Below are positions 18,071 to 21,000 of a stretch of DNA of 42,261 bases, one piece after another. A model generated the notes under the pieces. It saw nothing but the letters and a program-made list of their open reading frames with translations, was not told the origin of the DNA and ran no database searches. Each line of letters begins with the position of its first letter. The first letter of the stretch is position 1. Made by a program: the position numbers and the translations under genes. Source of the DNA: Candidatus Auribacterota bacterium. Its GTDB lineage: Bacteria > Auribacterota > JAFGBW01. The stretch is from assembly GCA_016932965.1 (NCBI GenBank), contig JAFGBW010000138.1:1-42261 (forward strand). The letters are read 5' to 3'.

Positions 18071-21000
18071 CTATGAGATGGCTTCCTGTTGAGTCAAATG
18101 GGTTACAAGGGGAATAAATGAAGAAATATCCTCTATATCTTTGAGGTAGTCTAACCATTGAAATTCCTGATTGAATGAAATATCGTAAGGTATATTCAAC
18201 GGTTCTAGCAAGGTATTTTGAAGAGGCAGGATTTGAATCTTTAAAGGAAGGATGTGAGTATTGATATCCATTGGGTTGCTGGTATTGTCCGAACCAAAAA
18301 AAGCATAGGCATTGGGATAAAAAAGGATATGATCCGCGTCATAATAGCCCCCATGAGAATAATACAGCGATGTTTCACTGTCCCGAATCATTCCTAAAAA
18401 TCCGACGTTGTTATCATTGATTTGTTCCTTTTGAGACAGGATCTGACCATAAGGTGAATAAACATATTTAGCTGTGATCACGCCGGCAGGATTGCTGATA
18501 TTGATGACCGAACCAAAAGCGTCCGTATGATAATAACGCAATTCTTTTCCATCATAGGAAAAAAGCAACACATTTCTTTGATAGTCATAAATGTATTTGA
18601 CCAGACTTTTTCCCGTGGATGAAATCACTTCAATCAGGTTTCCATACGGATCATAAACAAAAAGCGACGTCCGGTTATCATAGATCATTGAAGCGCGGTT
18701 TCCATTGGGTAAATACTGGTAAGTGTAAATCTCGCCCTTTTTATTTTTAAAAGTTTTCAGCTGTTTGAAGGATGTCCACTCATATTCCTCGTATGAGCCT
18801 TCTGAACACAAGTATTGCAGACAATTTGAAGAATTAAATTGAAAGATTTCGCAAGCCTTGGGATGCACATTGAAAACGAGCACATCGTTAATAGTGCTGC
18901 CGGAAGTCAACATTCCTTTAAAAGAAAAACGGTTGGGGCCGGGTGTGATCGGATAATTATCAAAAGAAAATGAGGATGATTCATGCAGCATTTGCCCTAC
19001 GCCGTTGATTTCCATGAAATTAAATTTTCCCAAACTGATCTTACCCTGAACACAAATGGAATTGATCGGATTCTGTCTTGAGCTGTCCAGCATGGAAAAA
19101 TTATTATTCATAGCATCATATTCATACTGGATACTGGTATTGTTCATCTTATCCATGCCGGTGACCGTTCCAGTGTCGGTCAATTTATATTGAATAGAAT
19201 CCACAGACTGAATCGTGTATTCGGAAATATGATCATGGGAATCATATTTAAGTTGAATCACTTTACCGTCATCGCTTCCGGCCACTATTTTTCCATCCTT
19301 ATAATAAAAATTGCATTCCCGAAGTGCTACTCCGGCATTGTCTGTAATCGACAATGTAGTCAAACGACCATCTTCATCATGTCCTTCATTTTGAAAAATT
19401 CCGTTAGGAAAACAAACCTCAACGTTCTGTTCTTGTTCCTGGTACCGGAACCGCACAGGATTGGAATTCTGATATTGGACGGATTCTAATTTTCCTGTTT
19501 TGTTGTACTGATAGGAAGTTTTTGTTCCGTCACTGTATTGAATGAAATATATTTTTGAAGAATCCGGAGCATACTTGAAATGATATTTCATCACCATATT
19601 GATGTTCATATCGGTCAAGCGTCCCTGATGATCATATTCGTAAGTACGCAAATCCTTCTCGACGGCAGAACTTTTCAATAAATTACTATGCGGGACATAT
19701 TCTATTTTTCCGCAAACTCCATCGGAAGCGACAAAATCACTCATACGTCCCTCTCGATTGAAATAGACTACGGAATTCTGATCCAACCTGATCGAATAAA
19801 GCTGCCCTGATGAGCCATAAGAGTATTTTCTATTGAAAGAGCCACGGTTTGTGATGGCAACAATACGACGCAGTTCGTCCAGTTCCGCTGATAAAATCCC
19901 ACCCTGGTTAGAACGCAAATCAAGGGTACGGTTATCATAGTTTACTTTTTCAGCCTTCAATTTACGGGAAAAACAGGGCAAATCACTGGAAGAGGAAGAA
20001 AACGTTTTGAGATCGAAATACGTCCTGCCGTTGGGAAAAATCAATTCAAAAAGATCGCCTTTTTCATCATAATTCAGCTTATAGATGGAATTAAAATAAT
20101 CACGCGCCTGCATCAATTTGCTGTTTTTCCAGGAAAAATAAGACTTTTGACCTGAAGGATGCCGCACGCATGTGATCAGGCCTTTGGCATTTCTTTCCAG
20201 AGTATACTGATCATTATTTCCAACCTTGATCTGGTGAATATTTCCCTGGCTGTCACGAATAAAATCCACACTGCCTGCTTCCCTGTTTTCAGAGATGACC
20301 AGCCCGTTTTTAATGTTTTTTTCAAGAACGGGAATTCCGTTCAGAATCACTTTATTTAATATGTTCCATGTTTCATCGTAAGTGAACTGATAGAAATCCT
20401 TGCCGATTTTCTTTGAGATTAAATTACCTTTTGAATCATATTCAAAGGAAATATCAGCATCCTTATTATTGGTGAAAACCAGAATCCTGCCTTTTTCATC
20501 AAATGTGTAATCCAGCTTTTCACCGGTTTTATTGAGTGTATAGTGAAACGGATCTATGTTCTCTATCCAGAAATTATTGCCGTCCCGGTTCAATTTGATG
20601 ATGTTTTTTCCAAAAGAAATACTAAAGAAATGATTTTTCTCCGAAACGGAACACAATTTTCCCATCAGACCGTATTTCAATTCTATTTCATGGGAAGGAA
20701 AAGAAAGATGCGTGATCCGGTGAGGGAACAGAGGATGATTTCTCTGAACACTAAAAATGACCTCTTTATTATCGGAACGAATGGCAGAGAGAGCATTGTC
20801 TCCATCATACTCGAATCGATATTGACTTTCTGGATTCTGAAGAGAACTGATGCTTCCTTGTTCATTCCATTGAATCGTGATTTTTTCGTTAAAATTATTT
20901 TGAATTACAACCGGTTTCCCTTTTTCATACTCATAATACAGAGCATTTCCCATGTCGTCAAAATGCTGAACAAGCCGGTAAATTCCATTCTTCCATAACT

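Follow-up and report, generated by a model that had tools for sequence, protein, structure and literature searches.

A conserved family of bacterial YD-shell proteins lacking the protease half of the Rhs core and a polymorphic toxin module

Known Rhs/YD cocoons and the protein under study

Cocoons formed by Rhs/YD repeats are understood almost only as containers which cleave and eject polymorphic toxins, the known exception being the eukaryotic teneurins. In the solved cocoons of Rhs, TcC and teneurin-like proteins (TLPs), the core spirals inward and closes the shell, and the cleavage site and everything beyond it lie in the lumen. Here we describe a protein which, judged by its repeats and by the first half of its Rhs-associated core, is a member of this Rhs/YD cocoon superfamily. 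Its gene is located in a contig of 42,261 nucleotides from a Candidatus Auribacterota bacterium (JAFGBW010000138.1 of assembly GCA_016932965.1), the whole of which is referred to below as the window:

18071..21628 (-): gene of the YD/Rhs-shell protein P0001 (the YD protein), 1185 amino acids (aa), last gene of a conserved three-gene operon; identified by RHS_repeat/YD_repeat matches, Foldseek and the score gap of its family

By the longest open reading frame (ORF) rule the gene spans 18071..21634 (-); translation probably begins with the ATG at 21628 and then yields the 1185 aa. The repeats that mark membership of the superfamily are present (Pfam RHS_repeat, 1.9e-14; TIGR01643, 2.5e-16), and RHS_repeat was also matched by 8/8 orthologues (best 6.4e-33). 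The closest solved structures by sequence were the bacterial teneurin-like 9IFO/9PT5 and T6SS (type VI secretion system) Rhs cores, with E values of 6e-10 to 1e-8. An independently assembled Logan contig of the same public run covers 18014-21974 with zero differences, so that the stop codon of the gene is real and not an assembly artefact. The last 162 codons of this ORF had been singled out in an earlier note, drawn up from the bare sequence, and all the peptides quoted there were found in the translation where the note had placed them.

The top Foldseek matches of the AlphaFold2 (AF2) model of the YD protein were the Rhs cocoons of T6SSs. Like these (8QJD/8QJB of Salmonella bongori, 8QJA of Advenella, and 7Q97, RhsA of P. 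protegens), the YD protein is predicted to be a YD-repeat beta-cocoon, is similar in size and has the first half of the core. In contrast to them, it lacks a PAAR/VgrG-binding N-terminus, the catalytic Arg/Asp/Asp, the PxxxxDPxGL motif, a polymorphic toxin and an immunity gene, and there are no T6SS genes in the window; in their place it has a predicted membrane anchor at the N-terminus and a tail that is conserved.

The TcB-TcC cocoon of Tc toxins (4O9X, 4IGL) shares with the YD protein the YD shell and a homologous N-terminal core half, and it encloses its C-terminal region. However, the Tc shell is built of two proteins, has a beta-propeller gate, depends on a TcA injector and cleaves its cargo, whereas the YD protein is a single polypeptide with no propeller match, no TcA-like gene and no protease.

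Over the core region, the best sequence match in the PDB was BiTLP (9IFO/9PT5; E 6e-10), and in both proteins the shell is followed by a C-terminal region of ~90 aa. BiTLP retains R2103/D2116/D2140 and the DPxG motifs, cleaves itself, and has highly polymorphic C-terminal domains with immunity genes (PMC13018210). The protease, the polymorphism and the immunity genes are absent in the case of the YD protein, as are the BIG, TTR, TIP, FN-plug and NHL domains of BiTLP.

The metazoan teneurins (6FB3, 6SKE; Foldseek E ~1e-32) share with the YD protein, in which the anchor is predicted, a type II anchored YD shell without protease, and the teneurin shell has a non-toxin use at the cell surface. Teneurins have no Rhs protease motif, and their C-terminus is uncleaved and routed outside the shell (PMC13018210). 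The FN-plug, NHL beta-propeller and TTR of the teneurin/TLP superfold were not detected in the YD protein, in which RHS_repeat was the sole domain match; with 1185 aa it has room for the shell alone and is too short for these domains. A precomputed match to PF25023 (TEN_YD-shell) reflects the shell only, and the likeness to metazoan teneurins is one of functional convergence, not of membership. Among the known systems it is nevertheless these that the YD protein resembles most in behaviour, though in no more than two points, the type II anchoring of the shell and the missing protease.

The YD protein thus lacks the defining features of the self-cleaving Rhs core, of polymorphic toxin systems, of the teneurin/TLP superfold and of the Tc BC components. 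As regards polymorphic toxins, no hypervariable C-terminal domain and no adjacent immunity gene were found in its family, and no trafficking domain in the protein itself. A full-text literature search of partial coverage returned no description of a protease-less, toxin-less bacterial Rhs family, which is no proof of novelty.

Truncated core and conserved tail of the YD family

A word-indexed search identified a single orthologue of the YD protein, P0002 (34-38% identity over 98% of the length), the remaining matches being generic Rhs proteins of ~20% identity. An exhaustive phmmer search of 1.84 billion representative proteins yielded, apart from two fragments, five other full-length members, which are 1154-1306 aa long and scored 485-743 bits. 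A gap in score, from 485 to 157 bits, separated the family from ordinary Rhs proteins. When the middle gene of the operon was used as the query, 11 homologues led to six further loci with complete contexts. A scan of contigs with a two-sequence profile gave no relatives; with an eight-sequence profile, the matches listed included generic Rhs proteins only (19-31% identity). The nine family members analyzed comprise those of eight genomic contexts and P0072. Mean column identity of the YD protein is ~48%, and the same architecture is maintained across lineages which are 28-38% identical.

The three parts of the C-terminal region discussed below are as follows:

18332..18562 (-): retained first half of the Rhs-associated core, residues 1023-1099 (RYYHTDAFGS...YVYSPYGQ...GFLGMIRDSETSLYY..GGYYD), delimited by profile alignment
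18074..18331 (-): C-terminal tail, residues 1100-1185, which takes the place of the protease half of the core and of the toxin domain; alignable among orthologues
18104..18190 (-): conserved tail motif IP..iSFnkEFlWlD.Lpn...di..Lk.yL, residues 1147-1175, with P1147, E1155 and W1158 invariant in the family alignments

No other segment of the family is as conserved as the first half of the core (pairwise identity of 0.45-0.58). TIGR03696 (Rhs-associated core) matched the YD protein at profile positions 1-45 of 76, with 21.6 bits against a cutoff of 32.5. We built a hidden Markov model (HMM) of 130 positions from 33 canonical Rhs cores, all of which (33/33) align to position 125 at least. On P0001 the alignment covered positions 11-86 (50 bits), and on P0001 and eight relatives together it was confined to positions 2-92, with its end at YYDP or slightly past it. 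When the YD protein was aligned by MAFFT with 34 Rhs proteins of the generic type, the canonical RARYYDPxxGRFxxxDP...NxYxY..NPxxxxDPxGL was present in the others and had no counterpart after GGYYD in the YD protein. The ~40-residue half of the core that carries both catalytic aspartates and PxxxxDPxGL is therefore absent.

In BiTLP, the catalytic triad R2103/D2116/D2140 consists of an Arg adjoining YYDP on its N-terminal side, followed at distances of 13 and ~37 residues by the two Asp (PMC13018210). The position of the catalytic Arg, before YYD, is occupied in our family by an invariant Gly (G1094 in P0001), and both Asp positions were unalignable in 9/9 members (HMM positions 93-130 unmatched). 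Equivalent catalytic residues are reportedly present in TcC (Busby 2013, Meusch 2014). The PxxxxDPxG motif occurs in 160 of the 194 generic Rhs relatives retrieved; all seven family sequences that extend to the C-terminus are without it.

These results bear out the earlier note in so far as it described a recognisable first half of the core and a DPxGL site that is not evident, and the alignment to a core HMM which it had proposed revealed neither the catalytic aspartates nor the cleavage site intact in any of the nine members. Its term "degenerate" is misleading: the truncated core is common to 9/9 members and represents a stable, selected, derived state rather than a decaying copy. The suggestion that NTHIL is a vestige of DPxGL did not hold: N[TN]HILP occurs in 5/9 members and is lost in the other four (those of loci L001, L086, L087 and L089), and it is thus no conserved catalytic site. 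Asn-mediated cleavage at a vestigial DPxGL was accordingly rejected as a feature of the family, four members being without the motif.

The tail of P0001 comprises 88 aa after YYD and 56 aa after NTHILPL, in agreement with the ~55 residues estimated previously. In the eight-way alignment the tails, of 80-96 aa after YYD, can be aligned throughout, with a mean pairwise identity of 0.26-0.38 as compared with 0.20-0.58 for segments of the shell. Ratios of nonsynonymous to synonymous substitution (dN/dS) were computed for the two pairs with unsaturated dS; they were 0.25 (tail) and 0.11 (shell) for L084/L088, and 0.23 (tail) and 0.19 (shell) for L001/L086. Values for all segments, the tail included, fell between 0.05 and 0.25, and these comparisons of coding sequence show the tail to be under purifying selection.

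The tail did not match any Pfam family at E<=10, and a profile of the eight tails found nothing better than E 0.26 among PDB sequences. AF2 gave it no fold (predicted local distance difference test score, pLDDT, of 27-29). The tail is proline-rich and ~42% hydrophobic. It had also been described as acidic, which is true of P0001 (net charge -9) and is not a property of the family, as the tails of the orthologues range from -5 to +2. Two further checks suggested in the earlier note were thereby carried out: a toxin fold was sought and no known one was matched in Pfam or the PDB, AF2 likewise giving none; and the orthologues were examined for C-terminal polymorphism, which revealed no variable toxins or immunity genes, but alignable tails of uniform length under purifying selection.

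Shell, operon and genomic setting

The remainder of the YD protein is divided into the following regions:

21518..21580 (-): N-terminal transmembrane (TM) helix, residues ~17-37, with basic residues before it; a type II signal anchor by prediction and a helix (17-37) in the AF2 model
20924..21451 (-): family-specific N-terminal domain, residues ~60-235, with the motif DTLYPG.G.FGFG; conserved in the alignment, beta-rich in the AF2 model
18569..20926 (-): YD-repeat wall of the beta-cocoon, residues ~235-1020, identified by repeat matches, AF2 and Foldseek
18824..19066 (-): non-YD insertion in the shell, residues ~855-935, FNFLEINGxGQ..F.FNNFPV.PG.NTL..KG.LTSG, pLDDT <50

The N-terminal hydrophobic stretch is kept in 8/8 orthologues, including that of L086 after extension of its start upstream. 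The database call of the latter starts too late, and the upstream in-frame sequence MKRKIFFLSLLSLNILLFFLY... (L086 11615-11719) restores the N-terminal TM helix. The first 243 aa of the YD protein had no Pfam match; from its position, the domain at ~60-235 is presumed to be the N-terminal plug of the shell. The non-YD insertion is conserved above the family average despite its low pLDDT. It matched Glucodextran_B (Ig-like) weakly in 4/8 members (E 0.002) and a VtrC beta-barrel (E 0.006), a search of its profile against the PDB gave only very weak or chance-level matches, and it may form an external appendage of the cocoon.

The AF2 model (mean pLDDT 69; predicted template modelling score, pTM, 0.46) shows the TM helix at 17-37 and beta structure over 97-1104. 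Foldseek aligned ~1100 columns of it to Rhs cocoons of 1020-1050 aa, with E values from 1e-45 down to 8.6e-51, at TM-scores of only 0.2-0.35, which make the global shape unreliable. The size of the protein and the span of these model-based alignments appear to indicate one complete cocoon and little else.

The genes which accompany the YD gene in the window are:

21631..23121 (-): middle gene of the operon, 496 aa, with a TPR-like periplasmic region between two TM helices and then a C39-like domain; adjoins the YD gene in 8/8 contexts
23125..26865 (-): first gene of the operon, a secreted protein of 1246 aa; three LamG/concanavalin-like domains, a linker rich in Pro/Ala/Ser, and conservation in the C-terminal region
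26999..28651 (+): membrane protein with Wzy_C (Pfam, 6.8e-10) and TPR, O-antigen-ligase-like, divergent to the operon

The order LamG protein (1074-1265 aa), 2-TM protein (~500 aa), YD protein (1171-1306 aa) was found in 8/8 contexts, and the YD gene is always the last. With reliable gene calls, neighbouring genes overlap by 4 nt at one extreme and are 26 nt apart at the other, the window having gaps of 2-3 nt; those of 105 nt and 187 nt in L086 are due to miscalled starts. The LamG protein, which is present in every locus and orthologous to its counterpart in L001, matched Laminin_G_3 (2.9e-70) in three stretches and has a signal-peptide-like N-terminus. The window and six related loci have a divergent upstream gene with TPR and/or Wzy_C. 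Wzy_C is present in the window and at L082, L084, L087 and L088, whereas L001 and L086 gave TPR only, and faintly. L089 begins at the LamG gene, which puts its upstream flank out of view. The linker of the LamG protein (~200 aa, residues ~700-900) is rich in Pro, Ala, Ser and Thr; its combination with the divergent Wzy_C/TPR gene is the arrangement that would be expected of an O-oligosaccharyltransferase and its glycoprotein substrate.

The middle protein is 46% identical to its counterpart in L001. Its TPR-like periplasmic region was assigned by eye and from faint matches. The C-terminal ~163 aa (window 21631-22120 (-)) are the most conserved piece of the operon, with a mean column identity of 82% over nine homologues. 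This part looks like a cytoplasmic, non-catalytic C39-like domain on a 2-TM protein; the segment for the catalytic Cys is missing, and no ABC transporter is attached. Its profile gave only chance-level or very weak matches in the PDB.

Downstream of the YD gene, the window contains:

17927..18070: intergenic gap of 144 bp, with one weak terminator-like hairpin (17960-17947) and only junk ORFs of 23-47 aa
15275-17926 (-): Aas-like gene, the next after the YD gene, 883 aa; acyltransferase, phosphopantetheine-binding (ACP-like) and AMP-dependent acyl ligase domains

The best NCBIfam matches of the latter were models of acyl-[ACP]--phospholipid O-acyltransferase (Aas), all far under their cutoffs. 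The 144-bp gap of the window holds no credible immunity-like ORF, and the earlier observation that the YD gene is followed at this distance by a lipid enzyme rather than by an immunity gene was correct. A 103-aa ORF (17847-18158 (-)) was considered as an immunity gene and rejected: it is out of frame with the gene on either side, both of which it overlaps, and the tails of the orthologues can be aligned up to their last residues in the reading frame of the YD gene. The gene downstream of the YD gene differs by lineage (Aas-like, SMC-like ATPase, tRNA methyltransferase, GH2, PFK) and is each time of a housekeeping type. Hence in the eight loci, the gaps of the related ones being read from gene calls only, there is no conserved downstream neighbour and no shared immunity candidate.

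The window is a part of the core chromosome (RecA, IF3, L20, PheS/PheT, RNase Y), and the operon loci of the relatives are likewise located among housekeeping genes. Genes for VgrG, PAAR, Tc, T6SS or other injection components were not found in the window, nor were any visible in the fetched stretches of related contigs. PADLOC detected no defence system in the window, which also contains no rRNA.

Some further features were recorded. Genes for LptF/G are present on a related contig and the public run is a sediment metagenome; we take the lineage to be an uncultivated diderm from sediment. The best matches of PheS, from MAGs and "bacterium B13(2017)", were 63-65% identical, followed by Desulfobulbia and Gammaproteobacteria with 52-60%. 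L084 (17796-18680) and L088 (16328-17212) have genes for ankyrin-repeat proteins close to the operon; in bacteria, such proteins often go with a host-associated lifestyle. Downstream of the Aas-like gene lies a signalling cluster, 9063-15223 (-), which is not conserved beside the YD operon elsewhere, and a lactate locus was noted near the start of the window:

13706-15223 (-): FHA and Ser/Thr kinase, signalling cluster
12695-13444 (-): HTH and PilZ protein, signalling cluster
9063-12698 (-): Ser/Thr kinase of 1211 aa fused to ~11 WD40 repeats, signalling cluster
2762-4237 (-): L-lactate permease, upstream of the fused dehydrogenase
1274-2740 (-): cyclic-nucleotide-binding domain fused to a D-2-hydroxyacid dehydrogenase, directly downstream of the L-lactate permease

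Possible functions of the YD protein

The reading we favour, and regard as probable by a modest measure, is that the YD protein is a non-cleaving, non-polymorphic cocoon, anchored in the inner membrane and holding a tethered conserved peptide, which serves as a scaffold or chamber in a cell-bound envelope or surface module. According to this proposal, a Rhs/YD beta-cocoon would have permanently lost its C-terminal aspartyl autoprotease together with the polymorphic toxin/immunity module. The N-terminal TM helix would anchor the protein in the inner membrane, and the predicted topology places the cocoon in the periplasm or facing outward. In BiTLP, the cleavage site and the chain downstream of it are in the lumen of the shell (PMC13018210). 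The first half of the core, which is retained, would close the shell just as it does in canonical Rhs proteins, and the chain of the YD protein should therefore enter the lumen at GYYD.

The three catalytic residues being gone, the tail should remain tethered. When the catalytic Asp of a Tc protein is mutated, the cargo is reportedly not set free, and the Foldseek matches included 6H6F/6SUE, which are such mutants (TccC3-D651A). The conserved, proline-rich tail of 80-96 residues would stay covalently attached and either fill or line the cocoon, or exit through an opening as in teneurins, in which case a partner could gain access to the IP..iSFnkEFlWlD.L motif. The YD protein may act in a complex with the LamG protein and the 2-TM TPR/C39-like protein, and the Wzy_C/TPR neighbour probably also works with it. 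Together, these proteins could constitute a vertically inherited module of the envelope or surface with a role in adhesion, scaffolding or signalling.

A cell-bound module is favoured because the tail is non-polymorphic and apparently tethered, there is no immunity gene, a membrane anchor is present in every member, the envelope partners are fixed, and the location is in the core genome. We consequently favour the view that the YD protein is not a delivered interbacterial toxin. The earlier note had offered two possibilities, a non-toxin shell with a structural or encapsulating role, or a very small cargo peptide. The two are supported alike by the absence of intact catalytic aspartates and of a conserved cleavage site, of a known toxin fold in the tail, and of variable toxins with cognate immunity genes in the orthologues.

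Several observations weigh against the cell-bound module. A different protease, or self-cleavage of a non-aspartyl type, may release the tail. The C-terminal domain of BiTLP, of 92 aa, is a functional membrane toxin (PMC13018210), and shortness alone is thus no proof against toxicity. As a whole the AF2 model is of low quality (pTM 0.46, TM-scores of 0.2-0.35), and it shows neither a closed shell nor the position of the tail. The C-terminus of the middle protein matches Peptidase_C39 weakly in 9/9 members (best E 3.6e-4, profile positions 24-128 of 133, below the Pfam threshold), and the AF2 model of this domain (pLDDT 39) is unusable. Finally, the metatranscriptome of the same study contained no contig over the region of the YD gene and so lends no support to its expression.

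An alternative is that the YD protein is still a toxin container, whose 80-96-aa tail is a small cargo, e.g. a membrane-active peptide, freed by another protease or by non-canonical self-cleavage, perhaps near N[TN]HILP, which in 5/9 members lies roughly in the place of DPxGL. The target would be other cells or a eukaryotic host, and if it is absent from the producer, no immunity gene would be needed. We consider this explanation unlikely, although small cargos of Rhs proteins and TLPs do exist and the C-terminal domain of BiTLP permeabilises membranes (PMC13018210). The hydrophobic and proline-rich composition of the tail would suit such a cargo, and the ankyrin-repeat proteins on related contigs would fit a host-associated life. 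However, the polymorphism that is the hallmark of Rhs toxins is entirely lacking, the three catalytic positions are all lost, and N[TN]HILP is not conserved in the members from L001, L086, L087 and L089. Neither a delivery apparatus nor an immunity candidate was seen in the window or in the fetched related stretches, the tail has no predicted fold or toxin-family match, and the membrane anchor at the N-terminus speaks for a protein that stays attached to the cell.

Another explanation, a variant of the cell-bound module, is that the tail is an exposed docking or sorting peptide, which leaves the shell uncleaved in the manner of teneurins and attaches by its helix-like motif either to the LamG protein or to the TPR region that the 2-TM protein has in the periplasm; such binding would assemble a trans-envelope complex. 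TPRs are a class of peptide-binding folds, and a TPR-like periplasmic region is encoded by the adjacent gene, the two genes being always neighbours. Within the tail, conserved positions cluster in a short motif instead of being evenly distributed, a pattern typical of interaction peptides, and teneurins, which are without the protease motif, do route their C-terminus outside the shell (PMC13018210). Yet no opening of the shell was seen in the uninformative AF2 model, the 8-12 sequences are too few for an analysis of co-variation, and the TPR region of the middle protein was assigned only by eye and from faint matches, so that we assign this variant a low probability. The last alternative, a pseudogene or orphan Rhs remnant whose toxin tip was lost by deletion or recombination, would explain the unrecognisable second half of the core and the missing toxin domain, but it is extremely improbable and effectively refuted by the purifying selection on all segments (dN/dS 0.05-0.25, tail included) and the conservation of architecture across lineages at 28-38% identity, the frame being intact in every full-length member (1154-1306 aa), the synteny of the operon conserved and the independent contig in agreement.

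Returning to the cell-bound module, we tentatively propose, as a conjecture that is plausible but short of probable, that the YD family represents a vertically inherited, "domesticated" bacterial cocoon, which has dropped its protease and toxin and become a fixed part of a four-gene envelope or surface machine, an independent parallel to the animal teneurins. This machine may consist of the Wzy_C/TPR protein, the multi-LamG protein, the 2-TM C39-like protein and the YD shell, in which the cocoon would be no weapon but a chamber or scaffold anchored in the membrane. If this is true, exaptation of the cocoon occurs within bacteria too, and the family would provide a simple prokaryotic system for the role of an "unarmed" cocoon and for the way in which a tethered C-terminal peptide is housed. 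For annotation, it would mean that proteins labelled "RHS repeat-associated" need not all be toxins.

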